From Candidatus Micrarchaeota archaeon (GTDB taxonomy: Archaea; Micrarchaeota; Micrarchaeia; Anstonellales; Bilamarchaeaceae), in the NCBI GenBank assembly GCA_038046765.1, contig JBBSVN010000001.1:1-64000 (forward strand): a stretch of 64,000 nucleotides of DNA, given 5' to 3'. The notes under the pieces were generated by a model. That model was not told the origin of the DNA, ran no database searches, and saw only the letters and a program-made list of their open reading frames with translations. Every line of letters starts with the position of its first letter. The first letter of the stretch is position 1. Made by a program: the position numbers and the translations under genes. This document shows positions 2,147-54,121 of the stretch, piece after piece.

Positions 2147-2791
2147 ATGATTAAGTACAAAGATCTTGCCCAAGGTGCAAAAGTTATTCCAATTTCTAGA
2201 GCAGCACCTCATTTTATTGATGAATCAGTCGCAAGAAAACCTATTCCGCCAGAACAAATGGGTCAAATGCACGTTTTAACTCCAAGACCTAACTGGTCAA
2301 AACTAGACCTTGAAAATGATCGAATAGAAATATTCCACAACTTAAATTTAGAACAAACCTTGGAGTTAGAAAGACTAGATTTTGTAATTTTACCAAACAG
2401 TGTTATTGATCATATTTTACAAAATCCAAAATTAAGGGAGAAATACGCGAAGTTAGGTTTATTTCCCTGCAGAACTGGAACCTGGGTAGACCTTGATGAA
2501 GAAAATTGCATTATAAAACAGGATGGAAAAACAAAAGAAATCAGACTTCATACAAAAAATGGTTGGTATAAAAAAGACGAGTTCGGAATTCCTTCTGGCG
2601 CACCATCTAATGAATTTGATCCTGATGCGAGATACTTATATAGAGCAGGTAACTGTTCTGAGTTTCTGGTTCGCGTCGCCGGCTACATAGGCTGGCCTAA
2701 CATCTATGCGGGCACTGGTTGGTCCAATGGTCTTGGGGTGGCGTGCATTACCCGCGAAACGTATGAGAAATTATTCGTAGATAAAATCTGA
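2147..2791 (+). CDS. Putative DGR target protein, C-type-lectin-like fold
   Basis: FPCRTGT..GWY..GIP..ARYL..LVR[variable]GVAC; closely similar to the C-terminus of 23010..24938; GC-rich 3' segment. Confidence 0.7.
   Translation: MIKYKDLAQGAKVIPISRAAPHFIDESVARKPIPPEQMGQMHVLTPRPNWSKLDLENDRIEIFHNLNLEQTLELERLDFVILPNSVIDHILQNPKLREKYAKLGLFPCRTGTWVDLDEENCIIKQDGKTKEIRLHTKNGWYKKDEFGIPSGAPSNEFDPDARYLYRAGNCSEFLVRVAGYIGWPNIYAGTGWSNGLGVACITRETYEKLFVDKI
2666..2749 (+). repeat. Putative DGR variable region VR1
   Basis: 47/80 GC over 2671-2750; ends in ggggtggcgtgcatt, identical to 24873-24887. Confidence 0.6.
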
Positions 2792-2823
2792 AGTCTTAAC
2801 AAAGTCTCTAGTTATTTTTATTT

Positions 2824-3672
2824 CTACTTGCTGAGCTCTTTTCGTGTGTGGGTTTCTTTCCAAGCCCCAGCTTTATTTGTTCTTTCAATTACGTATCTTT
2901 CTAATAATTCGTCCTTGTTACGGTCATCTAAGTTTCTCTTAAAAATTTCTGCCCGTGTTTTAACTGTTGTTAAAGTTTCTCTTATCTCTTCTATAAATGC
3001 TGCTGCGTATGCTCTTTCTTTTAAGTGTATTTCCTTTGACGCAGGGTCATTTAATAAAAAACTCCAACCAGCATGGTAAGGGAATTGTCTAATTGGGAAA
3101 GGTCCCTCGCATAATCCGCTGTTGTCTACGCCTAATCCATACTTCGCTTGTTCGTCATTAATTGTTCTTGCGGTTGGATACCAAAGTAATTCGTGCGAAA
3201 ATGGGTTTTCATAATCGTACTTTCGGTAGTGTTTTTTTAGCGCACCATTTACATCGTTAATCGGGCCTAGAATTTTTTCTAATATCGGCTGTACTAATTC
3301 TGGATCGTAAACTTCGACGACGTGCATAAGATATCTTAGATTTAAACTCCTTCTAATTTCTAGTCCTGCCTCAGTTAACATATGCGTTAATTCTACAGGT
3401 TCACTTATTAGTTTTCGTTCCCAACCAAAAAATAATGTGAGCGGTTTAAGTCCTAAAATTGTAAATGAAAGTTCAAGCGAAATCGTGCGTTGCACTATCC
3501 ACGTTGTTGGATCGCTTATGATATAATGCGGTCTAATTTCTCGTAAAATGTGGTATGCATCATCAAAATGTTTTTCGAATCTGTCTTTAGCATGTGGAAA
3601 TGCAGGAAGTATCCTTTCCTTGAATATGCCTCTACATAATTCCTTATGGCTAACCATAATTACTTTATGCAA
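2824..3672 (-). CDS. Hypothetical protein
   Basis: 282-aa ORF; TATA-like tttataaa near 3680-3687 suggests a start at the MVSHK ATG. Confidence 0.6.
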   Translation of the reverse strand: MHKVIMVSHKELCRGIFKERILPAFPHAKDRFEKHFDDAYHILREIRPHYIISDPTTWIVQRTISLELSFTILGLKPLTLFFGWERKLISEPVELTHMLTEAGLEIRRSLNLRYLMHVVEVYDPELVQPILEKILGPINDVNGALKKHYRKYDYENPFSHELLWYPTARTINDEQAKYGLGVDNSGLCEGPFPIRQFPYHAGWSFLLNDPASKEIHLKERAYAAAFIEEIRETLTTVKTRAEIFKRNLDDRNKDELLERYVIERTNKAGAWKETHTRKELSK

Positions 3673-3714
3673 AAAACAGTTTATAAATGTGTGGTTTTTG
3701 ATGATTGAAGCTGT

Positions 3715-4905
3715 TTAAAGTATAATGTCAATATTCCCCTTAGAACTAACGGTTATCGCAGTCTCTTTAGAAAAGTCAAATGTTTTAGCAAAGCCTCGAG
3801 TTATCTTTATGTTCATTCCCTTTTGTATCCATTTACCCCGATCATCGAACATGAATACGATTGCCTCATTTTCATCTTCATCAACAACTTTTAGTCTTAC
3901 TGCTTCTTTCTTTTCTTTGCCTTTGGGGTAAGTAATATTTTGCACTTCTAAGACATTTAGAAGTTCAGTATTTATGTTTCGCATTCCATTCTTGATTTTT
4001 GTTAAGTTTGTTATTTTTATTTCTTTGAATTTATCTCTTGCTAAGTTGTAAGCTAATTTGACATCCTGTTCTGATTCTTTAGTAAGCCGCTTCATTTCCC
4101 TTTGCATTAATTTATCGTCTCCCCCTGATGCGAGCATTGTCTCGTACGCGCGTTGAAACACGCTTTGCGGTGCTGACGCATACATTTGTTTTGCCTGTAA
4201 TTCTTCACTGTCCTTTTTCTCAATGTTTTCAATTTCATTCGCTACAAGCGAGACGTTTTTTTGTTCAGTTGTAAGAGAGCCTATTTCCTCTTCAAGTCTT
4301 AGCTGCTTTGGTTGGCCTAAGTGCTGTTCAATTTGCTCTTGTAAATCTTTATCTGTTTGATAGCCAGTTTCTGCTGGAGTTGTCGTATCTGTGGCAGTAA
4401 ATGAATCTAAATCCGAAATAGCTTCCATGTACCCCGTTAAAAATTCTTGTATTGCTTTTCTTCCATTCTCGCTGTCTTGGTGCATATTTGCTGTTGTTTT
4501 CATGTATACCTTTTCAATTGTTGGCATCATTTTGTTTTTTACTGCATCTGCACGTAATTTTCCTAATTTTTTTTCAAATAGTTTTGTAATTGGTGCAAGT
4601 ACTCTGTTTCTTTTATTCTCCTGATCAAGTGTCGTTGGTGTTGATATATCTTGCTCGTGATTTTCAGAAGAAAATATTTCCGCAAAGCTCATTACTTCCT
4701 GCTCGTTCGATTTTCTTTTATCTAGTAATGTCTGTGCGACTTGTTTTACGGATATATCTTTATCATAACTTAATTCCATTAAAGCAAAAAGTGCAGCAGG
4801 ATCATCCATTTCCCCTAATTTTCTCGCCGCATTCTTGCGTACATCGGGGCTTTCATCAAAAGTAAGTGAGACTAATTTATTTATATTCGTTTGAGTAGTT
4901 TGCAT
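3715..4905 (-). CDS. HEAT-repeat plus C-terminal OB-fold protein
   Basis: N-terminal DESPDVRKNAARKLGE..ALFALMELSYD..VKQVA (HEAT); the C-terminal ~95 aa resemble an RPA/SSB OB fold. Confidence 0.65.
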   Translation of the reverse strand: MQTTQTNINKLVSLTFDESPDVRKNAARKLGEMDDPAALFALMELSYDKDISVKQVAQTLLDKRKSNEQEVMSFAEIFSSENHEQDISTPTTLDQENKRNRVLAPITKLFEKKLGKLRADAVKNKMMPTIEKVYMKTTANMHQDSENGRKAIQEFLTGYMEAISDLDSFTATDTTTPAETGYQTDKDLQEQIEQHLGQPKQLRLEEEIGSLTTEQKNVSLVANEIENIEKKDSEELQAKQMYASAPQSVFQRAYETMLASGGDDKLMQREMKRLTKESEQDVKLAYNLARDKFKEIKITNLTKIKNGMRNINTELLNVLEVQNITYPKGKEKKEAVRLKVVDEDENEAIVFMFDDRGKWIQKGMNIKITRGFAKTFDFSKETAITVSSKGNIDIIL

Positions 4906-4974
4906 ATTTATCCAACTATATACTAATAGTATAGCTTAAAAAACATTTTTCTTTAATATTAGATTCTTAATATC

Positions 4975-5064
4975 CCGAGGCCAGAAAATTTATCGCCTCG
5001 GTCTATCCTGAACCAATGAGATAAAACCTAAGATTTCCTAATCGGTATTACTTATTTGGTTCAG
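4975..5064. ncRNA. Candidate two-hairpin structured RNA or leader
   Basis: ccgaggc (4975-4981)/gcctcgg (4995-5001) and ctgaaccaa (5008-5016)/ttggttcag (5056-5064) in an intergenic gap. Confidence 0.35.
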
Positions 5065-5140
5065 TATATCCCCTGCTAATACTTAAAATATGTATATATA
5101 AATTGACTTAGAGAACTCATGATATACGATTTCTCTAGAA

Positions 5141-5680
5141 GTGATTTTGATGAATGATGAAGAAATGAAATCCCAAATAACTCCACTTGAAACAGAAAAA
5201 AATTCTCTTATTGAAAGAATTAAAGAACTTAATAAAAGACTAAGGTATAAAAGCTACGAGCTTAAGGCACTAGAGCCGTTCTTAAAACAACACGAAGGCG
5301 TAAATATAGGTCCTTTAAGAGAAAGAAAAAGAAAACTGGATTTTAGAATAACTACTGCAGCATATACTCCTAAAATTGAAAGGGATCTTTTAAAAGAATT
5401 AAAAAAGATTGATGATGAACTGGCAAAATACAAAGATGTTGAAAAAGGCCGAAGAAAAGAACGGTTTGTAAGACAGGATATAATTGATATAACTGCTGAA
5501 ACATCTAAAATCGAAGAACGCTTAAAAGTCATTCGAGAAGAATTAAAAGTTCTTTATGTTGATTCGCAACAAATCCGTGCCACAGCAAGAAAAGAAGCTG
5601 CTATAAAGGCGTTTAAGGACGATATGGCGACTCTTGAAGACATGGGAATAATTGTTGAACATAAGGGAAAGAAGAAATAG
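5141..5680 (+). CDS. Archaeal coiled-coil protein (COG1340-like)
   Basis: Heptad-rich; LDFRITTAAYTPKIERDLLKELKKI resembles the conserved block of this family. Confidence 0.6.
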   Translation: MILMNDEEMKSQITPLETEKNSLIERIKELNKRLRYKSYELKALEPFLKQHEGVNIGPLRERKRKLDFRITTAAYTPKIERDLLKELKKIDDELAKYKDVEKGRRKERFVRQDIIDITAETSKIEERLKVIREELKVLYVDSQQIRATARKEAAIKAFKDDMATLEDMGIIVEHKGKKK

Positions 5681-5862
5681 TTTATTCTATTTTTTATCTT
5701 TTTTATCGTAATCATCTAAAATAATTAAATTTTTATCTAAAATATTTGAATATTTATCTGGTTTTAAAAGCGTTTTCTCTCTCACATTTATTAAATCAAT
5801 TTTCCAGAAACTGGCCTGATCCCACTAAAAAATTCCTTCGGAATATCTGCTGCTAATTGAAG

Positions 5863-7590
5863 TTATTGTTCGGGTTTTTGTTCTACTGTAACTGAAACCG
5901 AGCAATCTTTTGTATAAATTTCTAATTGATATTTTCCGGCTTTGTCAATTTCAAATGTCAAAGTATTCGTGATTTTGTTTCCCCCTTGCGGCACTACCTC
6001 ATCCAATATTGGCCGTTCAAAAATAGCATCATGTCTAACAAGCTTAATCCTTGTGTATCCTCCTACGCCTTCTAGGTTAATTACAAAACCAACCTTTCCA
6101 GCATCTAAATCAAATGCCTCTGTTCGTGAGATATCTTGTCCCGATTCACTAGATTGTCTAAATGTTTTTGAAAAACCCTCGGAAACCTTTGCAGGTTCTA
6201 ACTGCATTTGTTTTTCTTTTTCTTCAAGAAATCTTAAACGAGCTTGAAGGGTTGCGAGGTGTTTTTGGTTTACGGAAAGACGCCATTTTGAGAACTTGTA
6301 TTTAGGATACAAACATATCTCTAATAAACCTATCAATGCTATTTCAAAATTATCCTTACTTATATACTTAGCGGATGAATATTCTCCATAATCATCTATT
6401 TCAAATTCCCCGTGTTCAATCTTCTTTTCTGTTTCCTCAATCTCTTTTCTAACTTCTTCAATTGATTTACGTTTTAATCTCCAAGTTTTGAAAGCTGAAA
6501 CATAACCTCCTAGTGATCCTACAAAACCCAGCGTAGCTATACTTGCAACTAATAAATCGACCTTTTCTGCACCATCTAAAATAATCCAAGATGCTAATGT
6601 TGAAATTGTTGCTCCGAAGATCTTCATTGACACTCTTCTTCGCATTTCGCTACCCGTCAACCTTTCCTTGCCAACATCAACAGTCGCAACAGTCTGCGCT
6701 TGCCTAGTTGTCATCGCTTGCGTAGTTTCCTTTTTAGTTACCCTTAGCAAAGCCTCCTTCATTTCTGTTGCAGTTGCAAATCTTTTATCCGGGTCAATTT
6801 GCATTGTTCGTTCTACGATCGATCTATGCAAAGAATCAAAAATTCCAGAATAGTCAAAAATAAATGTATTTTTACAATGAGGTTCAATGTCGCCCACAGA
6901 TAAACTAAATAACATTGAACCTAAGGAATACACATCTGTTTGGAAAACTGGTTTAATACCCGCTTCAGGTGCAGTTGTGTGGGGTGTCTCAAATAAATAT
7001 ACTGAAGATAAGTTGCGATCAATTCTCGTTCCAATTTTTGCTGTACCGCCTACTTCAAGAACACGAATTGTGCCATCTTCTGTTAAAAGTGCATTGCTTA
7101 ATTTAAAATCCCTTAAAATTAGACCCTTGGAATGCGCAGAAGAAATAATGTCACAACATTCGCTAAGCATCTGGGTACTTAGTTCTGATTCTAAAATCCC
7201 TAGTTCATCAAGTCTAATTCCAGGTATATATTCTTTAACAAGATAAATTCTTTTTGTTATTTGATCATTTATGAATTCAAAATATTTACAATATCTAGGG
7301 TCTTCTTGTAAAATTAGTCCTTTTTTATATTCTTCTTCAAGTGATTCTGCTCTCGCATAATTCTTATTTGCAGTTGTTTTGATAACTACGTTTCGGTTTT
7401 CTTTTATGTCGTGAACTAAATATACTTCATACTCTTCTTTAGCTGATTTTCTTAGTGTTTGTATAATTCTAAATCTTCCAGTGAGCATTTGTCCTTCTTC
7501 TGGTGGCATTAATTTTAGCGCAATTTTTTCAGTTGCAGTCTTCACTTTATCCGTTCGTTCGTGTAGTCCTGCTAAAGCTAAATTTGTCAT
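5863..7590 (-). CDS. Ser/Thr kinase-like protein (degenerate), two TM helices, C-terminal beta domain
   Basis: VVIK, LRDFKLSN, APE, TDVYSLG, DPDKRF present; DFG position reads EVG; two hydrophobic helices around aa 322-367. Confidence 0.85.
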   Translation of the reverse strand: MTNLALAGLHERTDKVKTATEKIALKLMPPEEGQMLTGRFRIIQTLRKSAKEEYEVYLVHDIKENRNVVIKTTANKNYARAESLEEEYKKGLILQEDPRYCKYFEFINDQITKRIYLVKEYIPGIRLDELGILESELSTQMLSECCDIISSAHSKGLILRDFKLSNALLTEDGTIRVLEVGGTAKIGTRIDRNLSSVYLFETPHTTAPEAGIKPVFQTDVYSLGSMLFSLSVGDIEPHCKNTFIFDYSGIFDSLHRSIVERTMQIDPDKRFATATEMKEALLRVTKKETTQAMTTRQAQTVATVDVGKERLTGSEMRRRVSMKIFGATISTLASWIILDGAEKVDLLVASIATLGFVGSLGGYVSAFKTWRLKRKSIEEVRKEIEETEKKIEHGEFEIDDYGEYSSAKYISKDNFEIALIGLLEICLYPKYKFSKWRLSVNQKHLATLQARLRFLEEKEKQMQLEPAKVSEGFSKTFRQSSESGQDISRTEAFDLDAGKVGFVINLEGVGGYTRIKLVRHDAIFERPILDEVVPQGGNKITNTLTFEIDKAGKYQLEIYTKDCSVSVTVEQKPEQ

Positions 7591-7697
7591 ACCTTACTTA
7601 TCCGTAAAACCTTTTATAAAGTTATGTTTTATGGGGAAAGACGTAATAATAGAAAGCTTTATATATGTATATATACTATATATACATAGGTGTTAAT

Positions 7698-7937
7698 ATG
7701 GCAAGAGCAATTATGATTTCAGATCACGTTTATGAAGAATTAACTGAACTAAAAAAACCAGGAGAAAGCTATAGTAAAGTAATAGACAAGTTTCTTCATG
7801 AAAATAAAAAGGAGGAAAAAAAAGATATCATGAAGTTTGCTGGTGCCTGGAGTTTTCTTAGTGATGAAAGTGTTGATGAGATAGAAAAAACAGCAAAAAA
7901 AATAAGAAAAGGCTGGAGAAAAGTGGAAAAATGGTAG
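7698..7937 (+). CDS. vapB: VapB-type antitoxin
   Basis: MARAIMISDHVYEELTELKKPGESYSKVI..FAGAWS; overlaps PIN gene; ATG at 7698. Confidence 0.88.
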   Translation: MARAIMISDHVYEELTELKKPGESYSKVIDKFLHENKKEEKKDIMKFAGAWSFLSDESVDEIEKTAKKIRKGWRKVEKW

Positions 7938-8326
7938 TACTAGATACAACATTCATAATTCATTTTCTCAAAAATAAGGAAAATGCATTGCAGAAAGCTC
8001 AAGAAATAAACGAACCAGTTTATACAACGAGATTAAATATTTTCGAAATTTTAGCAGGGATTAATCTGAAAAAAGAGGAAGAAAAACAACCTGCCTTTAG
8101 CATCTTTAATGATTTTTTGTATTCAGTTAAAATTTTAGAACTTGATGAAAAAAGTACAAAAAAAGCTGCAGAAATTTATGCATATTTACATAAAAAAGGA
8201 GAGACCGTAGATAAAATTGATGTTTTAATCGCATCTATGGGAATCACGAATAATCAGGAAAAAATAATAACCGATAATGTAAAAGATTTCTCTAAAATTC
8301 CTGGAATAATTGTTGAAAAATACTAA
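7931..8326 (+). CDS. vapC: VapC PIN-domain toxin
   Basis: VLDTT, E, DVLIAS, TDNVKDF acidic PIN motifs. Confidence 0.92.
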   Translation: MVVLDTTFIIHFLKNKENALQKAQEINEPVYTTRLNIFEILAGINLKKEEEKQPAFSIFNDFLYSVKILELDEKSTKKAAEIYAYLHKKGETVDKIDVLIASMGITNNQEKIITDNVKDFSKIPGIIVEKY

Positions 8327-8337
8327 TCTTAGCTAAA

Positions 8338-8733
8338 TCATTTTTGTTGCGTGTTTAATCTCAAATAATCCTTCACCATCTTATCATGATCAAAAGCCAG
8401 CTTTGGTAATTTGTCAAGACTAAACCAAGCAATTTCTGCTGCATCATCTCCTGCTTTTATTTCGCCCGAAATTATTTTACATAAATAAGTCGCTACAATC
8501 GTTTTTCTTGGGTCTCTATTAGGTTCAGAATAAATTCCTAATAAAGAAATTGGTTCAACAACAAGATTTGTTTCCTCTTTCATTTCCCGTTTTAAACATT
8601 CGATCGCATCTTCGTTTTCTTCAATACGGCCGCCAGGAATCGCCCAAAATCCTAAAAATGGTGGTGCGCCTCGCTTAATTAAAAGTATTTTGTTATCATT
8701 AACAACTAGTCCATCGCATGCAAATTGTCTCAT
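8338..8733 (-). CDS. Nudix hydrolase (ADP-ribose pyrophosphatase-like)
   Basis: Nudix box GGRIEENEDAIECLKREMKEETNL; RDPR, AGDDA, LAFDH. Confidence 0.92.
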   Translation of the reverse strand: MRQFACDGLVVNDNKILLIKRGAPPFLGFWAIPGGRIEENEDAIECLKREMKEETNLVVEPISLLGIYSEPNRDPRKTIVATYLCKIISGEIKAGDDAAEIAWFSLDKLPKLAFDHDKMVKDYLRLNTQQK

Positions 8734-8779
8734 AAATAAAGAATAAAAAGATTATTTTATAACTCGATTCATAATTCCC

Positions 8780-9826: not shown

Positions 9827-9945
9827 AATTCTATTGCCACATAAGTCCTTTTAATACTATCTTTTATAACTATATCTGTTATCCATAACTCGGTTCTTTG
9901 TAAAACTCTTTTTTATAATTATTTGTACATAATAGTTCATACAAC

Positions 9946-10173
9946 GGGCTCATGTGGCAACCTGGATAACCGGCAGGGCTTCGAATGCCGAAGTCGATTT
10001 TGACTTTAAAATTCGGTTAGCAGTTACCCTGAGATGAGGGTTCAAAACCATTACTTTTGATCTTGCAATTTCTTGCGGCAAAAGTAAAGGTGTTGGTCAA
10101 AAGCCTTCACGTCTAAGCTAAGAACGAAACGCAAGACGCGAAACTTGAAGACTAGAAAATCCCTCTGGGCCCG
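9946..10173 (+). tRNA. tRNA-Arg(UCG) with introns at 37/38 (9985-10025) and in the T-loop at 59/60 (10047-10159)
   Basis: Acceptor GGGCTCA/TGGGCCC, anticodon arm CAGGG-CT TCG A|A-CCCTG, T arm GAGGG-TTCAAA|T-CCCTC. Confidence 0.88.
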
Positions 10174-10273
10174 TTTTATTTCTTTTTATTCATATTTTCT
10201 ATTTTCTTGTATTCCATACTTGTCCACCATAAATTACATATATTTAAAAATACTAATATTCACTAATTATAAC

Positions 10274-11158
10274 ATGACACTTAACTTTAAAGCAAATCCT
10301 GATGTTCGCTCAAAACAAAAAACTGTTGTTCTGGTTCATGGTTACACTGGGAGTAGGCGAGAATGGGGAAAGCAAGGGGAAGCACTTAGAGAAAAAAATT
10401 GTCGGGTGGTTGCTTTTGATTTAGCAGGCCACGGTGAATCCGTTTTAAATGGGTCAAATAAAACTTCTTATCTAAAGGACAATGCGCGTATTCTTGTGTC
10501 ATCTATAACTGCAATGGGGGTAGTAAATCCTCAATTTGTTGCACATAGTATGGGCGCACTTGTATTTCTTGAATATGCAAAACTAACTATTGGTACGCCT
10601 TTATTTCCGGCGTCTTCGGTTTTGGTCGCGCCAGAATTAGGTGATCCTAGATACTTGGGTCCAGGGGGTTTACTTTCAGGGAGTTCTCTTATCGCTAGAG
10701 CGCGATTAAATCGCTTTAACAATCTAGTCGATAATGGTCAATTTGAACCAGCTGATGATTCGTTAAATGCTACAATTCGACTTTTCCAAGCGCTTGGACC
10801 AGCAACTATGAAAACATTCGGGGCAACTGATGCTGCCGTTTCAGAGTTTAAGCAATATTTATTTCGTTTAAGAAATCTTGACCCACACGCGCGTCGAGTC
10901 GTTATGCAAGCTCAAATTGAAAGAGGCGCAGAACTACGAGCGCAATTAACTTGTAAAGAGATTCAATTGCCTAATCTTTTAGTTCTTGGCGGATCAGTAG
11001 ATTTATTGATGGACGCAAAAAAAGTCGCAACAATACTTAATGACTCTGGAGTTAAATATGTCCAAAAAATTATTCCTGATGCTGGTCACTTCATACATTT
11101 AGAACAACCTGAAACTTTTACTAATCTATTACTAAATTTTTTAAATATCTCACATTAA
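10274..11158 (+). CDS. Alpha/beta hydrolase
   Basis: LVHGYTG, DLAGHGES, AHSMG nucleophile, D, AGHFIHLEQP; start moved to ATG 10274. Confidence 0.88.
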   Translation: MTLNFKANPDVRSKQKTVVLVHGYTGSRREWGKQGEALREKNCRVVAFDLAGHGESVLNGSNKTSYLKDNARILVSSITAMGVVNPQFVAHSMGALVFLEYAKLTIGTPLFPASSVLVAPELGDPRYLGPGGLLSGSSLIARARLNRFNNLVDNGQFEPADDSLNATIRLFQALGPATMKTFGATDAAVSEFKQYLFRLRNLDPHARRVVMQAQIERGAELRAQLTCKEIQLPNLLVLGGSVDLLMDAKKVATILNDSGVKYVQKIIPDAGHFIHLEQPETFTNLLLNFLNISH

Positions 11159-11168
11159 AATAATTATT

Positions 11169-11396
11169 GGGGGGGGGGGTAATCACCTTCCTAAGCCAGT
11201 GATTACCATCATCCTTTATAAACCTTATTTTCCTATTTACTATTACTAATCTTTCTTATTATTTTGAAATTTTTTATTTATTTTTTAACTTAAATCATCT
11301 CTTCTTTTACCACACTAAATGTATAATTTTTACACTAATTTGATAATTTTATGTTATTTTTAACCTTTTTTTAATTAAAAATGTATAATTTTCACA
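11169..11396. repeat. Intergenic G11 run, 9-bp inverted repeat and three AT-rich direct repeats
   Basis: G run 11169-11179; ggtaatcac/gtgattacc 11178-11207; acactaaatgtataattttt (11312), acactaatttgataatttta (11332), aaatgtataattttcaca (11379). Confidence 0.6.
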
Positions 11397-11443
11397 GTTT
11401 AAAAACACAAAGCTTTATATATCTTAGAACTTTGTATTAAGTT

Positions 11444-23009: not shown

Positions 23010-24938
23010 ATGACAAGAAGGCTCACTCCAAGTAGTGGCAATGTAATACCTATAGAAGCAGCTAGAACTAGAGCTTTTGCCGTCAAAACTGACCAAGATC
23101 ACAAATCTTTAGGGATAGTTACTGGAGAAAGGGGAGGTTATGAACTAAAAAAATCTATTTTCAAGAACAATGGCACAACTGAATTATTTTTAGCAACTGA
23201 TTTAAAAACTAATAAAGAGGTAATCGTAAAAAGAGTAACTCTTAAGGCAGAAGATTCAACCTTTAAACTTGCCCCAAGGGAATTTGACATTATAAACTAT
23301 CTAGATCATCCAAACGTGGTTAAAGCGATTGATCAGACTATGACATCGAAGGAAAAAGACGGAAACCAGATAACCGAGTATTTCTTAGTAACAGAAAAAG
23401 TCGAAGGCAAAAATCTAAGGGAACATAGCGCTTTTGGCACTAATTTTTCAGAAGAAGAAAAAATAGAAATTATAACACAGATTTTGCAGGCACTAGAATA
23501 TCTTCATGATAGTGGCGTAATACACAGAGATGTAAAACCAGAAAACATAATGGTTCATAAAACAGAAGATGGAAAAATAAATGTAACTTTGGTTGATTTT
23601 GGCGTTACGCTTACTGCAGTTAGTACTGGTTCAACCGCGCTTCTTCCAATATTTAGTAAGGGTTTTACTGCTCCAGAAGTTTTAGCATGTGCATCTGATG
23701 TTGATGGCAGAGCGGATATCTATTCTACTTCAGCAGTTTTGTCCTGGATTTTTACCGGTTTAGATGGAACAGATATGCAAACTAAATTAAGGACCAAAGA
23801 AGAAATTGACTGCATTGATGGTCAACTTTTAAGTATAATCAAAAAGGGATTAAAGGCAGACCCTGAAGAAAGATATCAAACTGCAAAGGAAATGAAGGAA
23901 GCTTTGGTTAGTGAGATAGAAGAAGGGGCAGATATTGCCGTAGTTGAACCCATTGACAAAGTGAATAAAATTTATCGAGAACTTAAAGCAAGAAAAATGG
24001 AATTAAGAACTAAGTATGCACAATTGGATCGTTCATTTAAGGAAAGCATGAGAAAAACTTTGAAATATGTTATCCCGTCATTTGTAGTTTCTGTAGCTAG
24101 TCTTGGTTATATTTTGACTGAACAACCAAAAGGACTGGCAGCTTTGCTATCTAGTATTGGAGTCTTCTTAGGTTTAACTGTTGCTGGTTTAGTGTTGCAT
24201 TTTAAGTCCAAGGCTAACGCGGATAAACTTAAAAATCTGGATGACCTAGAATTACAAATCGGTGATCTTGCATCAGATTTAGAAGAAATTGAAACAATTC
24301 GGGATTTGGATTCTAAGCGTGATCTGTTTTTAGAAGCTAGATCAGAATCTTTGCTTAGGCTTAAGTCTTCAAAAAAAGCATTAAAAGAAGCAAAAGTCAA
24401 AACACAAGACACGGATGTTGTCGACTGGTTCCTTCTTGACCTTACAAGTAAAGAAATCCAAGTCCATAAAAACTTAAACTTAGAACAAACTCTTGCATTA
24501 GAAAGACTAGATTTTGTAATTTTACCAAATAGTGTTATTGATGAGATTTTACAAGATGGTGCGTTAAGAGAAAAATACACAAAGCTAGGTTTATTCCCCT
24601 GCAGGACTGGAACATGGGTAGAACTTGATGGAGAAAATTGTATAATAAAACAGGATGGAAAAAGTAAGAAAACAAAACTGCATATACAAGATGGCTGGTA
24701 TAAAAAAGATAACCTCGGCATTCCTTCTGGCGAACCTACAAATGAAAATGATCAAGATGCAAGATTTTTGTGGAGAACTAAAAAATATGTTGGCCCTTTG
24801 GTCCGTGGCTTCGACTGGAACGACTTCAACGGGCAGGATGTCGGTGCCCTCAGAAGGCTCGACGGCGGTTACGGGGTGGCGTGCATTTCTCGAGCCAAAT
24901 ACGAAGAAATTTTGGCTCGATCTATTCAAAATGAATAA
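23010..24938 (+). CDS. Ser/Thr protein kinase, two TM helices, coiled coil, DGR-target-like lectin domain
   Basis: VIVK, HRDVKPEN, DFG, APE, ADIYS; TMs around aa 355-399; C-terminal ~165 aa paralogous to 2147..2791; ATG at 23010. Confidence 0.9.
   Translation: MTRRLTPSSGNVIPIEAARTRAFAVKTDQDHKSLGIVTGERGGYELKKSIFKNNGTTELFLATDLKTNKEVIVKRVTLKAEDSTFKLAPREFDIINYLDHPNVVKAIDQTMTSKEKDGNQITEYFLVTEKVEGKNLREHSAFGTNFSEEEKIEIITQILQALEYLHDSGVIHRDVKPENIMVHKTEDGKINVTLVDFGVTLTAVSTGSTALLPIFSKGFTAPEVLACASDVDGRADIYSTSAVLSWIFTGLDGTDMQTKLRTKEEIDCIDGQLLSIIKKGLKADPEERYQTAKEMKEALVSEIEEGADIAVVEPIDKVNKIYRELKARKMELRTKYAQLDRSFKESMRKTLKYVIPSFVVSVASLGYILTEQPKGLAALLSSIGVFLGLTVAGLVLHFKSKANADKLKNLDDLELQIGDLASDLEEIETIRDLDSKRDLFLEARSESLLRLKSSKKALKEAKVKTQDTDVVDWFLLDLTSKEIQVHKNLNLEQTLALERLDFVILPNSVIDEILQDGALREKYTKLGLFPCRTGTWVELDGENCIIKQDGKSKKTKLHIQDGWYKKDNLGIPSGEPTNENDQDARFLWRTKKYVGPLVRGFDWNDFNGQDVGALRRLDGGYGVACISRAKYEEILARSIQNE
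24798..24887 (+). repeat. Putative DGR variable region VR2
   Basis: 52/80 GC over 24801-24880; 7 of 8 codons at 24807-24830 end in C. Confidence 0.7.
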
Positions 24939-24954
24939 TTAATTTTGAATATCG

Positions 24955-24996
24955 CGCGAAACTTATGAGAAATTATTCGTAGATAAAATCTAAAGT
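24955..24996 (+). repeat. Orphan copy of the 3' end of gene 2147..2791
   Basis: 40/42 identical to 2753-2794; reads RETYEKLFVDKI*. Confidence 0.9.
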
Positions 24997-44308: not shown

Positions 44309-44434
44309 AAGATACCTTTTAACGTAAATTATTAAAAATACCCCTTAATCTGGGAATTTGCTTTAATACCTTTGTAGTAATATATATTAGACTAAGAAAA
44401 GAATATTAACAACCGATTTTAAGAGGTAGATAAA

Positions 44435-45031: not shown

Positions 45032-45137
45032 CTTTTTTCTTTTTTATTTGTTTTTAATTTTTCTCCAAGTTTTTGTATCTTTTAGAAACTTACACCTTTC
45101 ACTACTATTTATAAATATTTCCTAGCTAATTATAATT

Positions 45138-45422: not shown

Positions 45423-45470
45423 TTTTCTTTCGGTTTTCTTCTTTTTTCGATTCTATTTTAAACAAACTAA

Positions 45471-46418: not shown

Positions 46419-46541
46419 CAGTATATAATGCATAACACTCTTTTTAAATGTTGCTAAAAATGGGATATTTTGATATTTAACTTATATCTCATTAACGTTT
46501 TCCAATAATTTCTTTAAACGTACTAGATACATTAACTACTA

Positions 46542-46604
46542 GGTGCATGCATAATGGCTACTTGAGCTTTTAGCAATGACAAATTAGCTGAACAGGCATG
46601 CACC
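46542..46604. repeat. 9-bp inverted repeat enclosing heptamer-like units
   Basis: ggtgcatgc / gcatgcacc with cttgagc, ttttagc, aattagc inside. Confidence 0.5.
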
Positions 46605-46613
46605 TTCTTATTT

Positions 46614-47495: not shown

Positions 47496-47508
47496 TATCT
47501 AGAACCCG

Positions 47509-48249
47509 TTACTCGCTCTCAATTCTTGGAGCTAGATAATAGACAACCTTTGCCTTTTCTATGTCATATTCTACCTTAAGTGGCCTGTCTGTTTCTAGGT
47601 TTATTGTAACTGGAGAAGATCCGCTAGCTGCCTTTACAATATCCTCTAAATACTGCAAAGGGAAAGTTGCTTTTGTCTGAACGGCTGTTTGTATTTCGCT
47701 TACTTCGTCCCCTTTTTCAAACTCTGCTCTTACATCCCCGCCTTCGCCTTTCACATCTACAATAAATGCATTAGGTTCTAAAATAAGTCTTACGTGTGAG
47801 CTTACTAATTTTGCATCTTTTAAAGCTTCTTTTAATGCATCTGCGTTTATTCTAGCGTAATTTGCATAATCAATTTTAAGTTCCTTGGATAATCCAGAAC
47901 CAATGTCAAGAATCGGTACTTTAAACGTTCTTTTTCTTTTATCTGTGAAAAACTTCACGACTAATCTTCCTTCTTCGAGGGTTAGTTCTGCTTTTTCTCC
48001 TTTTTTACCTCGAGCTAGGATGTTTACAAATTGTGAAATATCAAGTCCAAGTTTTGTTTCTTCTTCTACTGAGTATTCGACAAATGCACTTTTTGGCATT
48101 GTAAATGAGACCATGCTTATCTGGCTTGGGTCCATTGCCTTTAATTGTAGTCCGTCTTTTTTTACCTCAAAAACTCCTTCTTCAACTAAGCTTGCTATTG
48201 AATCTATTGCTGATTTAAGAGATGGTGCTTCTTGTATAACTAGCTTCAT
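47509..48249 (-). CDS. pcn: PCNA sliding clamp
   Basis: LKAMDPSQISMV, YLEDIVK, DRPLKVEY, YYLAPRIE. Confidence 0.97.
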   Translation of the reverse strand: MKLVIQEAPSLKSAIDSIASLVEEGVFEVKKDGLQLKAMDPSQISMVSFTMPKSAFVEYSVEEETKLGLDISQFVNILARGKKGEKAELTLEEGRLVVKFFTDKRKRTFKVPILDIGSGLSKELKIDYANYARINADALKEALKDAKLVSSHVRLILEPNAFIVDVKGEGGDVRAEFEKGDEVSEIQTAVQTKATFPLQYLEDIVKAASGSSPVTINLETDRPLKVEYDIEKAKVVYYLAPRIESE

Positions 48250-48443
48250 AAAATTCGCCTCCGTGTCGTGTAATTTTTATATGCTTCTTATGTTCTTTTT
48301 TCTAAATCTCCCATTATATATAAGTAGTATAAATAAAAAAAGCTTTGTATTTACTGCTTCTCGAGTTTAATTTCCTTGCATTTCCAGTACTGTTCGTTCT
48401 TTTGAACAAAGAAAATAAAAACATCAAATACATTTAAATTTTC

Positions 48444-49064
48444 ATGCAGAAAGCAATGGCTGAGTTTATTGGTATTTTACTTGGTGATGGGTCTATAGGT
48501 ATTTACAAATCCAAAATTAAGAATAAAATAAAAACGTTGTACCGAATAAAAATTACTCTCAATTCAAAAGATGACCTGGATTATTCTGAATATGTTCGTA
48601 ACCTTATAAAAAAATTATTTAAATTAGAAACCATAGTCAAAAAAAGAAAAGATGAAAATGCCTTAGATATATTTATTTTCAAGAAAGAAATTATTATTCT
48701 TTTGTTAAACTTAGGGATGGAATTAGCTCCTAAATGGAATCGGGCAAAGGTGCCAAGATACTTCCTAGCAAAAAATTTAATTTCAGATGTTCTTAGAGGA
48801 TATGTAGATACAGATGGTTGTATTAAACTTGCTCAAAATAATGGGACCTTGTACCCTCGAATAGAAATGAAAATTTCTCCAGCACCAATGCAAAAGCAAT
48901 TAATTGATGGTTTATTTGAATTAGGGTTTGAACCAAAAATTTATCAAATAGGTAAGGGAAAGGTAAGCGTATCCTTGCATGGAAAACGTAATCTTAAAAT
49001 GTGGGGCGAGAAAATTGGTTTTTCCAACCGAAAAAATATTCTTAGATATAATAAGTTTAATTAA
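48444..49064 (+). mobile_element. Free-standing double-motif LAGLIDADG endonuclease
   Basis: AEFIGILLGDGS and LRGYVDTDGC; KIGFSN tail; no intein splice motifs. Confidence 0.85.
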
Positions 49065-49124
49065 AATAAAAAATCCAACAAAAAGCACAAGAGCGTTTGT
49101 TATCTTTTTTGTTGAAACAAAAAA

Positions 49125-49279
49125 TAGCGGGAAGTGGAATACCAACCATAAACCAAAGCTGTGGTTTAAAATTTTTGAACCAATGATCTCCGGGTTATGA
49201 GCTTCGCCTCGAAATTTTTATACTATAAGAAATATAAAAATTAAGATCCGGCGGGTACTCCAGGCTACCCTATCCCGCT
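49125..49279 (-). tRNA. Initiator tRNA-Met(CAU) with introns at 30/31 (49203-49247) and 59/60 (about 49139-49173)
   Basis: AGCGGGA/TCCCGCT with A1-U72; CCGG|G-CTCATAA-CCCGG; 4-bp BHB helix CGCC/GGCG at the first intron. Confidence 0.9.
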
Positions 49280-49330
49280 ATTCGTAGAATAAAGATGTGT
49301 CTAACTATTTATAAATATAGATGACTCGTT

Positions 49331-50089
49331 TTAGCCGCTACTTTGATTTATCGTTATGTTTCCGCCAACGTTGACCACTGCGCTTGTATTTGCGCTACTA
49401 TTAACTGATACGTTTGCTTGCGGGAGGGTATAACTTTTTGGATAAAATTTAACTGTACTTACAAATTGCTTAGCAGTTGCATCAGCCATATCTGGGTTAG
49501 TAGAATAAATCCGAACTCCATACAATGCCTGATTTTCCGCTGGGACTATACTCATTGCTATTCCGAAATACTTTACATTTTTTCTTAATGCAATAAATTT
49601 CATGAACGCGCCCTTTGCTGTGCCTACATTTATTGCAGAAATATCGCTCATATTAGTTGCAAAATGCAATATTCCTAAAGGATCAGTTTCTGCTTCCGCC
49701 TCGCTTTGAAGGTTTGTCCCTGCAAAATCATAAGGATCTATCTGGCTTACGTTCTCTAAATTTCCTGTGTAAAAGTAAGTTACTAAAAGATAGGTATCAT
49801 CTGGGCCGCTAAATAATACCGAAGCGTAACCATTACTACTATTATATCCATTTAATCTTTCTTCCCAGTCAAAATTTGCTGGATACTGGAATGTAAATAA
49901 TAATTTGCTATAATTTTTAGTTTCGTTAAACGTTATCTCGTTTTGCGTTATCGGAGGAGTAACTGTACTGTTAAATGGAGGTATCTTGGTGGTATTTTGG
50001 TCGCTTGATTTTCCTAATAATTGTAAGCACCCGCTTAATAATAATGAAATAATTAAAATTCCTATAAAAATTCTACTTACCTGTTTCAT
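49331..50089 (-). CDS. Lipoprotein, possibly PsbP-like fold
   Basis: LSGC lipobox; FTFQYPANF, FVSTVKF. Confidence 0.6.
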   Translation of the reverse strand: MKQVSRIFIGILIISLLLSGCLQLLGKSSDQNTTKIPPFNSTVTPPITQNEITFNETKNYSKLLFTFQYPANFDWEERLNGYNSSNGYASVLFSGPDDTYLLVTYFYTGNLENVSQIDPYDFAGTNLQSEAEAETDPLGILHFATNMSDISAINVGTAKGAFMKFIALRKNVKYFGIAMSIVPAENQALYGVRIYSTNPDMADATAKQFVSTVKFYPKSYTLPQANVSVNSSANTSAVVNVGGNITINQSSG

Positions 50090-50107
50090 AGTTTTGCCTC
50101 ATCTATC

Positions 50108-51004
50108 TTATTTTGTTAAAATTCTTACGCCATTTTCTTCTACAAGTATAGTGTGTTCAAACTGTGCCACAAGTCCGCCCCCTGTTTCTTTTAAGACTGG
50201 GTATCCTCGAACTACCTGCATTGAAAGTAATTCTTTTAGTGCTGATGTGACAAGAAGTTTTGAAGAAAATTCTTTTCTTACCCATCGCTCTGCAAATGGT
50301 AGTGTTGTGTAATTATCTTTTACAAAATTAAGTATTTGCCTGGATTGCCTCATTCTGACGGGGTTATCCGACACAATGCTAAATATTTCTACCTGTTCGG
50401 CATCTTCAACATATCCTTTGCCATTTGTAGTAAATGGCTCTATTGCAAATATTTCGCCTTCCTTTAACTTGTACTTTTCACCGGTTTTTACATTTGGTAT
50501 GTTGACTCCGGCGTGTAAATCTCCAGTTGATATGCTATGCCCGCTTAGGTTTGAAATTGGTTTAACCCCAAAGCTTCGAATTTTTTCCTCTATTATTTCG
50601 CCAATTTGCCCGTTTGTTACTCCTGCTTTTGCGAATTTTAGCGCAGCATCTAAGGCCTCGCGTGAAGCGTTAATCAAATTTTCGTTTTTGCCGCTTAAAT
50701 CTATTGTGTAAGCAGTATCTCCTATTGCGCCATCAACCGATACTCCAATATCAATTTTTACCATGTCGTTTTCATCAAGGGCTAGAGTACAATCAAATTC
50801 TGGTGTGTAATGCGCTGCGATGTTGTTTATACTTATATTAACAGGAAATCCTGGTTTAGCCCCTTCTTCAAGAATCATTGATTCGATGTTCTCAGCTATT
50901 TCGAGTAAAGGTTCGCCCACCATTATTAGTTTTTTACTATCTTCGCGTATTTTGCCTGCTATTTTTCCAGCTTGTATAAAGTTTTCTAGTTCGGTGCTAT
51001 CCAT
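50108..51004 (-). CDS. map: Methionine aminopeptidase type II
   Basis: AAHYTP, KIDIG, GDTA, NLSGH, AIEPF, QFEHT. Confidence 0.97.
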   Translation of the reverse strand: MDSTELENFIQAGKIAGKIREDSKKLIMVGEPLLEIAENIESMILEEGAKPGFPVNISINNIAAHYTPEFDCTLALDENDMVKIDIGVSVDGAIGDTAYTIDLSGKNENLINASREALDAALKFAKAGVTNGQIGEIIEEKIRSFGVKPISNLSGHSISTGDLHAGVNIPNVKTGEKYKLKEGEIFAIEPFTTNGKGYVEDAEQVEIFSIVSDNPVRMRQSRQILNFVKDNYTTLPFAERWVRKEFSSKLLVTSALKELLSMQVVRGYPVLKETGGGLVAQFEHTILVEENGVRILTK

Positions 51005-51092
51005 AAAAATACCTGTTAGTAATAAGCTAAGGTTTTATTTAAAATACTGCTTTTACTATCTATTTAAATACTTGTTCTACCACAACATAGGT

Positions 51093-51575
51093 ATGAATAA
51101 AACTAGAAAATCAGTAATTGCAGCTTCGATCGTAATTAGTGCAGTCGGTTTAAACGTGGCAGATTGGAAACAAAAGCAACCTCAAAATGAACAAAACAGA
51201 AAACCCACGACTATAGTTAATCTTAGGTCAGAGCTAATTGATAGCGAGCAAATTTTTAGGGAATTGAATTACTTACAAATGAATCCGGTGCCCATGGGTG
51301 AACGTGCGGAAAGATCCCTTTTGTTAAGAAATAAAGTTCTAGAGAAGGTTAGGGAATTTGAATCAGAAATTAGCAAAGCACGTACACCTAGAGAACTAAA
51401 AATAATCGTAACTGAGATAAACTCATTTTTGGAAGAATTTGGTGCAATAAGTCCATCTGAGTTAAAACGAGGACGCCCTATGTTTAATGAACTTTTAGAA
51501 ATGGCAAAGAAAAAGGGGGAAAATTTAGTTGCAACTAAGTTTAATTTGTTAGATAGTCTAGGAATTCATCCATAA
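51093..51575 (+). CDS. Small helical protein with N-terminal signal/anchor
   Basis: ATG 51093 after TATA tttaaata; MNKTRKSVIAASIVISAVGL. Confidence 0.6.
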   Translation: MNKTRKSVIAASIVISAVGLNVADWKQKQPQNEQNRKPTTIVNLRSELIDSEQIFRELNYLQMNPVPMGERAERSLLLRNKVLEKVREFESEISKARTPRELKIIVTEINSFLEEFGAISPSELKRGRPMFNELLEMAKKKGENLVATKFNLLDSLGIHP

Positions 51576-51576
51576 T

Positions 51577-53061
51577 CTATTTTTTCTTATCTTCAATACT
51601 TGGAATTTCTTTTGCAAGAGCAACGGTCTCAAATTCAGGTATAAGTTGTAAAGTTCTTAAAATCTCAAATCTTGGGTCAGACCTCACTCTTTTAACATAT
51701 TCGTTGTTAGGGTCTGCTTTTTTCAATTCTCTAAACTTAGTCCATAAAAGAGCAGTCGCTCGCATACCTCTTCTTTGTGATTCTGTTGAGTTTGCATTAC
51801 CTGTTACAAATGCATTTTGTGAATTTGTTATGTCTCCTCCCCAAGCGTGTGTTTTATCTCCTGTTAATATCGCCATCAGACCGCGCGACATGCCGCCTGG
51901 AGGGTAATAACTTGAGTCTTTTTTGAAAATTTGGTCTAACTGTTTGGTAAATTCATCAAAACCAGTACCATTAATTTTAAGGTAATTTTCTTCGCCATTT
52001 GGAAGATGTGCAAAAAATAGATACAGAAGTTGGTTATATACATAAACTTTTTCAGATGCAGCAGTATTGTATCCCTTACTCTTGGCAATTTCGATTGAAG
52101 TAACCTGCGCGTATCCTTCTTTTAATGGATAAAGTATATTACTTTGGTCAAAATGATGTAATTGTTCATGAACAGATGCAACATATATCGTGCCATCATC
52201 AGGTTTAGCTTTAACCATTGATTCTAAATTAAAGAGCACATTGCCGCTATGTCTATGATATATTCCAAATGCCAGACCAGGAATATAATCGACATTATCA
52301 AATGGTTGTGGTTCTCGTGCACCGCCATCGGTCCCAGTTTGTTTTACTTCTGATTTTTCAGGGATATCAACTGGTACCTGGACATTTACGCTAGCTCCGT
52401 TTCCGAATCTTCTTAAGAGATTAGCTGGGATGTTTGTGCGATTACCATAATATTCTCTAACTGCTGCAACTGCACTATCTTTATAATCTATAAGTTCTTT
52501 TTTTACTTTTGTGTGCTGGGTACCTAATATTTTTGCATTTTCAATAAAATGAATTACTTCGGGGCGTTTAAGAAGAAGATCTACAACAGAAGAAAATTCA
52601 GGTAGTTTATCTGTCTGTTTTTCTTTAACAATTTCTTTTTTCCCTTCTTCGGATTTTTGTTCCTCTTTCACTAGCTTTATTGGTTTAGTCATCTTTGCCA
52701 AATATCTGCTTGCTTCATAGTAATGCTCTTTTTGATCTCCCGTTCTACCAGCTAGTTCGTAAGCTATTTCTTCTGTTGCTTTAGTGATAATTTTTCCTTT
52801 TTTCCTCTCCGCTGCAATTTCTATTTCGATAGCTTTTACTGGACTTTGCTCGGCAAGTTTGGAAAATAATGTTGCCTTTAATCTTCCGGTACCTCCGCTA
52901 GAATTAGTAAGAATCGCGTCAACTTCCTTTGAATTGTTTAATACTAAATTTCTATTAAGATAAAACTCAAAAACAGATTCAGTTTTTTTACCTAGTTTCC
53001 TGTTTTTTATATCTTCACGCGCGTCAAATTCTTTTGGTGCTCCAGTTGTCATTTCTGCCAT
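51577..53061 (-). CDS. Zincin-like metallopeptidase
   Basis: VHEQLHH..LKEGYAQ (HExxH plus E); ATG at 53061. Confidence 0.7.
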   Translation of the reverse strand: MAEMTTGAPKEFDAREDIKNRKLGKKTESVFEFYLNRNLVLNNSKEVDAILTNSSGGTGRLKATLFSKLAEQSPVKAIEIEIAAERKKGKIITKATEEIAYELAGRTGDQKEHYYEASRYLAKMTKPIKLVKEEQKSEEGKKEIVKEKQTDKLPEFSSVVDLLLKRPEVIHFIENAKILGTQHTKVKKELIDYKDSAVAAVREYYGNRTNIPANLLRRFGNGASVNVQVPVDIPEKSEVKQTGTDGGAREPQPFDNVDYIPGLAFGIYHRHSGNVLFNLESMVKAKPDDGTIYVASVHEQLHHFDQSNILYPLKEGYAQVTSIEIAKSKGYNTAASEKVYVYNQLLYLFFAHLPNGEENYLKINGTGFDEFTKQLDQIFKKDSSYYPPGGMSRGLMAILTGDKTHAWGGDITNSQNAFVTGNANSTESQRRGMRATALLWTKFRELKKADPNNEYVKRVRSDPRFEILRTLQLIPEFETVALAKEIPSIEDKKK

Positions 53062-53092
53062 ACAATAATATGAGATTAACTTAATTAAAAAA

Positions 53093-53127
53093 GCTACGTG
53101 CCAATGGCTAAGAACTAAAGGCAACTA
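53093..53127. repeat. 7-bp-period repeats
   Basis: gctacgt/gccaatg/gctaaga/actaaag/gcaacta. Confidence 0.45.
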
Positions 53128-53245
53128 AATAGGTACCTTGGCTTAACCGTATATTAAGTTTATTTTAATGTAAAACAATGGTTTATAAATACTTCGATGC
53201 ACATTGTATTTACTAATAATTACAACATTTAGAGGCGTTAATTTT

Positions 53246-54121
53246 ATGAGCACAACAATTCAACAACCAACTCAAAGAATAAGAGGCCCAAAGTTAGAAG
53301 TGTTCATATCAAGATTATATGGTCTTCCTTTTGATGAAGAATTAGCTAGAGCAGATAAAGATAATAGAGTTATTGTTTCTAGTAAAAGACTAAGTTCAGC
53401 CCTAATTGGAAGCGATGAATGGAAAGCAATCAAAAAAGCTTTTGCTTGCTGGTCTGGAACTATGACTGCTTATGTTGAACCAAATGTAGAACTTGGGCAA
53501 GCTGCTAGAAGACTTAGCGATCTTGGAGATTTTCCTAAGTTAAGTAAAAATCAGTACGAACATGCTATTGTTTATACTGACCCCCAAACAGGAAATGATT
53601 GGATCTTTCCAATTCCAGAAAAATATTTAAGAGTAAAAAATGGAATTTTAGTTATTGAGCACCCTGATTATGGTTTAGATAGAGAAGGAACAAATAGATT
53701 AGTTTTACCAGTATCAGTTGAAAGAGTTGATTTAGTTGAAGGTTTTCCAGTTCGAAATGGTTGGTATTTACCAGATGCGATTCATGGAATACCTCAAACA
53801 AGTCAAGTAGATTATTCAACTAAAGCTAGACACTTGTGGAGAGTTGATAAAAGAGTTGGTCCGGTTAGGCTCGGCTACGACGACATGGGCGGCATCGACG
53901 ACATTAACGGGCGGTATGTCGACTTTGACGATAGGCCGTCCAATGGTTACGGGCTGGTAACAGAGGCCAGCGAAGCTGGCACGCCGGCTACAAAAGACGA
54001 AATTAAAACTAGTAGACAATCTAGCGTCATTCAGTTAAATGAAGGAGACTCCGAATTAATAATTCGAGGAAGCGATGCAAAAATTGAAGCAGCTTTAAGA
54101 CTTTTAGAAAGTTTGAGATAA
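53246..54121 (+). CDS. Putative DGR target protein, C-type-lectin-like fold
   Basis: FACWSGT..FPVRNGWY..HGIP..ARHLWRV..VGPVR[variable]RPSNGYGLV; start at MSTTIQ. Confidence 0.75.
   Translation: MSTTIQQPTQRIRGPKLEVFISRLYGLPFDEELARADKDNRVIVSSKRLSSALIGSDEWKAIKKAFACWSGTMTAYVEPNVELGQAARRLSDLGDFPKLSKNQYEHAIVYTDPQTGNDWIFPIPEKYLRVKNGILVIEHPDYGLDREGTNRLVLPVSVERVDLVEGFPVRNGWYLPDAIHGIPQTSQVDYSTKARHLWRVDKRVGPVRLGYDDMGGIDDINGRYVDFDDRPSNGYGLVTEASEAGTPATKDEIKTSRQSSVIQLNEGDSELIIRGSDAKIEAALRLLESLR
53858..53956 (+). repeat. Putative DGR variable region VR3
   Basis: 48/80 GC over 53861-53940; 11 of 13 codons at 53870-53908 end in C. Confidence 0.75.

Follow-up and report, generated by a model that had tools for sequence, protein, structure and literature searches.

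The diversity-generating retroelements (DGRs) closest to the system described here are those of the DUSEL4 Nanoarchaeota. Passages of Paul et al. (2015, PMC4372165) report several cassettes per genome, hairpins with GRA triloops, and genes with variable regions (VRs) that lie elsewhere without a reverse transcriptase (RT). Remote targets are likewise described by Wu et al. [quoted passage not shown] Remote targets escape the method of Roux et al., as a passage of that work states, and broken DGR RTs are read as inactivation in a passage of PMC3521204. Here we describe three DGR-type target genes (T1, T2, T3) in a 64,000-nucleotide stretch, hereafter the window, of contig JBBSVN010000001.1 (C1) from the assembly GCA_038046765.1 of a Candidatus Micrarchaeota archaeon (G000; 1.5 Mb, 89.7% complete). 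Neither an RT (PF00078) nor a template is present in the window, as the initial annotation had noted, or in its 82-kb contig; both are found on another contig, C4. That T2 and T3 are remote targets of templates on C4 is close to certain. It is probable, though far less sure, that mutagenic retrohoming acts in trans from these two templates and is gated by slipped-strand phase variation of the RT.

The three target genes are as follows.

T1, 2147-2791 (+): 214 aa, stand-alone variable protein of predicted CLec fold, orphan target.
T2, 23010-24938 (+): 642 aa, Ser/Thr kinase, two predicted membrane helices and C-terminal domain assigned to the CLec fold, remote target of the second template (TR2).
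T3, 53246-54121 (+): 291 aa, variable protein of predicted CLec fold with a C-terminal extension, drifted remote target of the first template (TR1).

The shared scaffold that had been recognized in these genes reflects homology, with the T1/T2 family and the T3 family aligning as profiles at a probability of 99.0% (E 2.3e-18). The C-terminal domain of T2 is 53-57% identical to T1, and T3 is a 76% identical paralogue of the target in cassette A, which contains TR1.

Two RT genes (RT1, RT2) above the PF00078 cut-off are present in the genome, both on C4 and located beside TR1 and TR2. Both cassettes have the order target, Rfam RT-16 RNA, template and RT. RT-16 (RF03019) is matched over its full length immediately 5' of each template, at 88.2 bits for TR1 and 59.8 bits for TR2, both exceeding the gathering score. 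The window has no such match, as would be anticipated if its genes are remote targets. Both RTs keep the catalytic YVDD and have their nearest named relatives in Micrarchaeota; their assignment to the DGR clade is based on context. The templates and the variable parts of the window genes, including the initiation of mutagenic homing (IMH) motifs and hairpins, are located as follows.

TR1, G000:C4 ~13424-13332 (minus): template of cassette A.
TR2, G000:C4 ~71947-71860 (minus): template of cassette B.
VR1, 2669..2746 (+): ends in the IMH-like GGGGTGGC; without matching template or downstream hairpin.
VR2 including IMH, 24793..24880 (+): IMH GGTTACGGGGTGGC; the IMH* of its template is GGTTACGAAATGAC.
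VR3 including IMH, 53856..53957 (+): apparently derived from TR1, drifted.
VR2 hairpin, 24890..24920 (+): 10-bp stem just 3' of the IMH, within the coding sequence.
VR3 hairpin, 53966..53980 (+): 6-bp stem with a GAA trinucleotide loop; identical in the cassette A cis target.
T1-type gene-end remnant, 24946..24991 (+): non-coding, just 3' of the T2 stop codon.

Four targets differ from a template at adenines only. VR2 matches TR2 without gaps, with mismatches at 19/32 adenines and 0/56 other positions (Fisher p 4e-11). The VR of a second kinase-CLec gene, at C4:139124-137322 and about 65 kb from TR2, differs from that template at 20/32 adenines and 0/52 others. For the cis VRs, the counts are 17/32 adenines and 0/59 others against TR2, and 19/29 adenines and 0/64 others against TR1. 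VR3 has drifted from TR1: it mismatches at 12/29 adenines and 3/64 other positions and carries a 9-nt insertion in the AAC-rich part (Fisher p 3e-5). With these non-adenine differences and the insertion, VR3 would have been written last by an earlier form of TR1 or by slipped cDNA; similar indels are described in a passage of PMC5758913. The non-coding copies differing at adenines that had been expected for each VR are therefore found for VR2 and VR3 but not for VR1, which shows 15/44 non-adenine mismatches to TR1 in a gapped alignment. No template for VR1 was detected by gapped alignment to TR1 and TR2, or by an adenine-tolerant scan of the 89.7%-complete genome and the fetched loci in which the VR2 control recovers TR2. 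The same scan yielded no template for four other paralogues. VR1 and its C4 paralogue bear a loose likeness to templates of relatives, VR1 scoring 54 against a null maximum of 44.5.

Hairpins follow the same division, being present 3' of template-matched VRs and absent from both orphans tested. The VR2 hairpin folds as DNA at -12.9 kcal/mol (z -3.7, 0/200 shuffles as good) and the VR3 hairpin has a fold z of -2.1, whereas VR1 has an IMH-like motif but no downstream hairpin (fold z +0.67). GAA triloops occur in both cis targets and VR3, and the C4 kinase gene has a weak 5-bp stem. Since it has neither template nor hairpin, VR1 is an orphan, probably of a third, absent template family. The earlier proposal of more than one template is thus borne out, with TR2 for VR2, TR1 for VR3 and a missing family for VR1. 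The proposal that all three genes are remote targets diversified in trans is supported for VR2 and, with drift, for VR3, while its implication of present activity meets the difficulty that both RTs are out of frame. Judged by these matches, the three window genes are not equivalent: T2 appears to be a current remote target, T3 a drifted one and T1 a retired one. The genome as a whole would then contain a two-engine DGR network with separate target sets for the two templates, and T1 and further paralogues appear to be retired targets of templates absent from the assembly.

Both RT genes are interrupted in the same manner, so that the uninterrupted frame usual for a DGR RT is absent. In each, a stop codon follows soon after the same (AG)7 tract and the catalytic YVDD half continues in the -1 frame. 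The two RTs are 67-77% identical in their halves, and only three tracts of (AG)6 or longer are present in the 1.5 Mb genome, two of them in these genes. To place this in context, RT loci of relatives were gathered with the second RT half as query, which favours neither frame. The search gave 299 loci; removal of 32 duplicates, 26 partial loci and 20 in which at most one half was present took out 78 and left 221. A stretch in the RT loop was scored as a tract when it was a homopolymer of at least 9 or a series of dinucleotide units running to at least 12 nt. By this definition, 28 of the 30 tract-bearing loci were out of frame (18 at +1, 10 at -1), compared with 5 of the 191 tract-free ones. 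Three of these five carry G7-G8 runs below the threshold, and with a looser threshold the counts are 31/36 with and 2/185 without a tract. The tracts are built of G, C, AG or AC units and are 7 to 24 nt long; the AC tract at -1 is in a partial locus (L023).

The frame change maps to the tract in 31/31 loci, with the first frame open up to the tract and the second open from it, while the wrong frames contain stops in 37/62 and 20/62 cases. Both halves are conserved. YxDD is kept in all 31 out-of-frame loci, a further stop occurs in 1/28 out-of-frame RTs compared with 3/191 others, and the downstream halves show purifying selection in 14/14 pairs (nonsynonymous rate dN 0.08-0.23, synonymous rate dS >0.85, the latter near saturation). 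A quick tree built from 85 of the 221 rows places 31 tract-bearing RTs together in a 38-member clade (Shimodaira-Hasegawa-like approximate likelihood ratio test, 100) in which G, C and AG units are interleaved. Three more lie outside it, one of them from an Aenigmatarchaeota genome; RTs from viral contigs (<=57% identity) served as background only. Two loci outside the Micrarchaeota clade, L050 and L144 (the Aenigmatarchaeota genome and a metagenome contig), have a G10 tract and a frameshift in the same RT loop, possibly of independent origin. Two further explanations for the arrangement were considered and rejected. Re-initiation of the second half as a separate protein lacks a consistent start codon in that frame, with none in either RT here, and a single programmed -1 ribosomal frameshift would not explain the family, in which +1 outnumbers -1.

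Full-length and split near-identical alleles coexist in public assemblies. Among ten RT protein clusters at 90% identity, five mix full-length and partial members at ~99-100% identity, and in four of these (one of AC, one of AG and two of G type) a repeat of altered length, longer or shorter, directly precedes the end of the truncated N-terminal part. The AG-type cluster contains two different OFF lengths, one further cluster has two in-frame G lengths, and at one locus (L006) G9 (in-frame) and G11 (-1) flank an assembly gap. In 13 of 29 parsed RT loops, repeat-encoded peptides are present. In-frame alleles make up 2/31 of the RT clade (3/32 with an AG11 run), where random length would give one third. 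Among close RT protein matches, 32/119 are full-length and 82/119 are pieces of <=260 aa, some of them cut by contig ends; as this set is less extreme than the clade, the size of the OFF bias is uncertain. MutS, MutL and NucS were not found in the 89.7%-complete genome, so slippage would be favoured.

On this basis, we propose that template RNA would be reverse-transcribed with errors at adenines, as in known DGRs, and that the cDNA would home to any gene, near or far, with a matching VR, an IMH and a hairpin. TR2 would serve its cis target and the two remote kinase-membrane-CLec genes (T2 and that on C4), and TR1 would serve its cis target and would formerly have served T3. The simple-sequence repeat (SSR), sitting in a presumably insertion-tolerant RT loop, would gate each engine: a repeat unit gained or lost at replication would decide whether the YVDD half is read in frame. 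Targets would be diversified in a minority of cells or lineages, with most keeping the variants they have, a division that may be adaptive; both RTs would be OFF in this assembly ((AG)7, -1). A broader reading, to which we lean only slightly, is that one hypermutator is governed by another: slippery repeats (G, C, AG, AC) would have been introduced by Micrarchaeota DGRs time and again at a single tolerant loop of the RT, and stochastic, reversible, mostly-OFF switching would meter the genome-wide diversification of intracellular lectin sensors, including membrane-anchored Ser/Thr kinases.

Several observations weigh against a reversible switch. Neither switching nor VR variation was seen for this organism, and no full-length allele of either of its RTs was found. 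Samples were compared as assembled contigs and for cassette B only. A single contig bridges the tract; it comes from a further sample of the study taken as the possible source, keeps the tract length unchanged and shows three differences and no gap across tract, template and VR. In runs X4-X6 the locus is in pieces, and the X4 contig, which passes the tract with ~13 nt on one side, was not counted as bridging. Across three runs, 0-1 differences are seen in the cis VR of cassette B, with 1 and 0 in the contigs from two other studies, although contigs drop rare variants; such near-invariance fits an OFF state and a fossil equally. Clean template/VR pairs are present at 17/25 assessable out-of-frame loci compared with 6/6 in-frame ones, and seven out-of-frame loci have drifted pairs (4-8 non-adenine mismatches) compared with 0/6, which suggests that OFF can last long. 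In addition, homopolymer lengths may be assembly errors, the loci are related so that p-values overstate, dS near saturation is blind to recent decay, and the placement of C1 and C4 in one cell is based on binning and the template match. Separately, a contig of run X3 (depth ~10) differs from the assembly at L002:2471 and 2493. One change is inside TR2 (C to A on the template strand), where a new template adenine would mean a new variable site, and the other is just upstream.

Part of this evidence would also fit RT tracts that are not switched at all. In a recoding rheostat of this kind, the frame would remain broken in the DNA, and slippage of RNA polymerase on the tract, or of the ribosome by 2 nt on the dinucleotide repeat, could supply a little steady full-length RT in every cell. 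This fits the excess of out-of-frame alleles in the clade (29 of 31 or 32, above the random two thirds) despite conservation of both halves, as well as the three AG tracts of the genome, which share length, 5' context and -1 offset as a fixed recoding signal would. However, the offsets of both signs and the diverse units and lengths of the tracts are unlike one programmed signal, and near-identical alleles differ in repeat length at the DNA level. Transcriptional slippage is known mainly from A/T runs. We therefore consider recoding unlikely as the explanation, though it could act on top of DNA-level switching.

Alternatively, the tract could be a mutational hotspot that kills the RT, a one-way off-ramp whose out-of-frame lineages, this genome among them, branch from in-frame ones and are short-lived or frozen, in which case all three window genes would be fossils. 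The static cis VR in three runs, the drift of VR3, the orphan state of VR1 and four paralogues (one with a stop in its VR) and the drifted pairs at seven out-of-frame loci all agree with this, and inactivated DGR RTs are documented in a passage of PMC3521204. Yet out-of-frame RTs have gained an extra stop in a single case, and across a deep clade the tract persists or has arisen anew with different units, a pattern that a hotspot with purely lethal effect would not promote. Moreover, slipped-strand changes are reversible in the contingency loci covered by a passage of PMC3711429. Irreversible loss is thus quite improbable. Still further from likely is a sequencing or assembly artefact at repeats that conceals RT genes in frame. 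Most tracts are indeed error-prone G/C homopolymers of >=9, and P0002 and P0003 are frameshifted T1-type genes in other assemblies. The tracts here, however, consist of dinucleotide repeats 14 nt long that agree between two loci and are gap-free in a separately assembled contig, and errors would neither put 28/30 loci out of frame nor place tracts at one site. Slipped-strand phase variation of the RT remains the reading we prefer.

The domain composition of the targets agrees with the DGR assignment. The AlphaFold2 model of T1 residues 45-214 has a mean predicted local distance difference test score (pLDDT) of 91.7, and its best structural match is 5ioo, a nanoarchaeal DGR variable protein (Z 8.0, root mean square deviation 3.5, 134 aligned). 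The T3 model (pLDDT 85.6) matches 5ioo at Z 7.3 and TaqVP (5vf4) at Z 6.5, with CLec domains at Z 6-8; Foldseek against the PDB gave no match for T3. The top-50 lists of both are nearly all C-type lectin domains, although at middling Z values. The CLec fold suspected earlier is accordingly predicted by modelling for T1 and T3, with the VR at the domain end, and by homology for the C-terminal domain of T2. Pfam searches give a name to neither the T1 nor the T3 domain. In T2, the kinase domain covers residues 59-290 (Pkinase, E 6.9e-35) and hydropathy predicts membrane helices at 351-369 and 374-398, with no hydrophobic segment in T1 or T3. As there are two helices, the kinase of T2 would lie on one side of the membrane together with the variable domain, presumably in the cytoplasm, an arrangement suggestive of a role in sensing intracellular ligands or in selecting substrates.

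The compositional features first noticed in the window are readily reproduced. VR1 (61.5% GC), VR2 (65.6%) and VR3 (58.8%) rise abruptly from ~35% upstream in each gene, and are the sole 80-nt windows with GC >=56% in the 64 kb. The runs of codons ending in C (NNC; 7/8 in VR2, 11/13 in VR3) can be read from the codon lists, and over the whole variable stretches the counts are 11/26 in VR1, 16/30 in VR2 and 16/34 in VR3. All four sequence anchors reported as shared between the VRs are in place; one of them, gtccaatggt, has an extra copy at 54745, outside any VR. Elsewhere in the window, a 575-aa gene on the minus strand (5863-7590) weakly resembles T2 over the kinase domain (25% identity, E 1e-7). 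A G11 run at 11169-11179, one of only three G/C runs of >=9 in the genome, lies 10 nt past the stop of an alpha/beta hydrolase gene (10145-11158).

The remnant behind T2 is 89% identical over 46 nt to the 3' end of T1. A similar T1-type non-coding gene end is found at G000:C4 ~136748-136711 (minus strand), behind the other TR2-matched kinase target, from which two small open reading frames (ORFs) separate it. It looks as if an insertion replaced the T1-type 3' end of the kinase targets and brought the hairpin that licenses homing. In a profile search, at least nine paralogues were listed in addition to the C8 partner of T2. A third kinase-membrane-CLec paralogue (L304, G000:C8 ~49820-51460) has an in-frame stop inside its VR and no matching template.

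An Avd gene, which had been suggested as a search target, was found in neither cassette, and the PF22296 search gave weak matches elsewhere, all below the cut-off. The better bAvd match among them (E 0.003) is a 133-aa gene at L113:1465-1866 (G000:C16), which interrupts a pair of genes for ATP synthase subunits and lies ~5 kb from an orphan target; it is probably a four-helix-bundle protein of the intervening-sequence type. The third (AG)7 tract of the genome (L300:1436-2323, G000:C4:124935) has AAATTTGAA as its 5' context, as at RT2, and is preceded by a short leader that begins with ATG and followed, in the -1 frame, by an ORF of 295 codons. This ORF, without a Pfam match or a homologue in 60 relatives, is a candidate for a second switched gene. 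At G000:C3:85430 and C8:19798, the minus strand carries a C9 and a C10 tract in nearly the same surroundings, between a TATA-like TTATAAA and the ATG of two genes; both are candidates for spacing-type phase variation.

Little is established about the control of cellular DGRs that spares a useful variant from being overwritten immediately. Switching of the RT by a repeat would provide a concrete mechanism that is readable from sequencing reads by comparing tract length with VR diversity. If true, it would explain in general terms the retention of a good DGR variant once a cell has found it, and would extend SSR phase variation to archaea. In practical terms, surveys that require an intact RT near the target would miss or discard this clade. 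No repeat-switched DGR RT was found in literature searches or in the passages of PMC8144416, PMC8867640, PMC11661182 and PMC3711429, a scope that does not extend to Paul et al. 2017 and supplements.

The three window genes are new instances of the known DPANN DGR and remote-target type, and the repeat-gated RT is the less expected part. In common with the passages on DUSEL4, the genome has several cassettes, a GGGGT-type IMH with a GAAAT-type IMH*, a GRA-triloop hairpin inside the target gene, and the CLec fold (5ioo). In contrast, there is no ORF between target and RT here but an RT-16 RNA, and a repeat interrupts both RT genes; the main text of PMC4372165 does not use the word "frameshift". 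The DUSEL4 paper, as far as its passages state, left RT-less VR genes as fossil or remote; here they are sorted into exact remote, drifted and orphan, and the genome answers the question with both. With the passages of PMC5758913 and PMC7517822 it shares dispersed targets tied to one template by adenine-only differences, Ser/Thr kinases with a C-terminal CLec domain, template-less paralogues, and in-frame indels beside AAC runs. It differs from these systems in its DPANN host, in having two templates, each with its own target set, in a CLec subfamily that Pfam does not match and in the two predicted membrane helices between kinase and CLec domain. Kinase-CLec remote targets, known in cyanobacteria, are thereby added to a DPANN archaeon. 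Finally, as in the SSR contingency loci of the PMC3711429 passage, a homopolymer or dinucleotide tract of variable length lies in the coding sequence, with +1 and -1 offsets and intact halves. Unlike in those loci, the gene that would be switched is a hypermutation engine, not a surface protein or methyltransferase, and the host is an archaeon.

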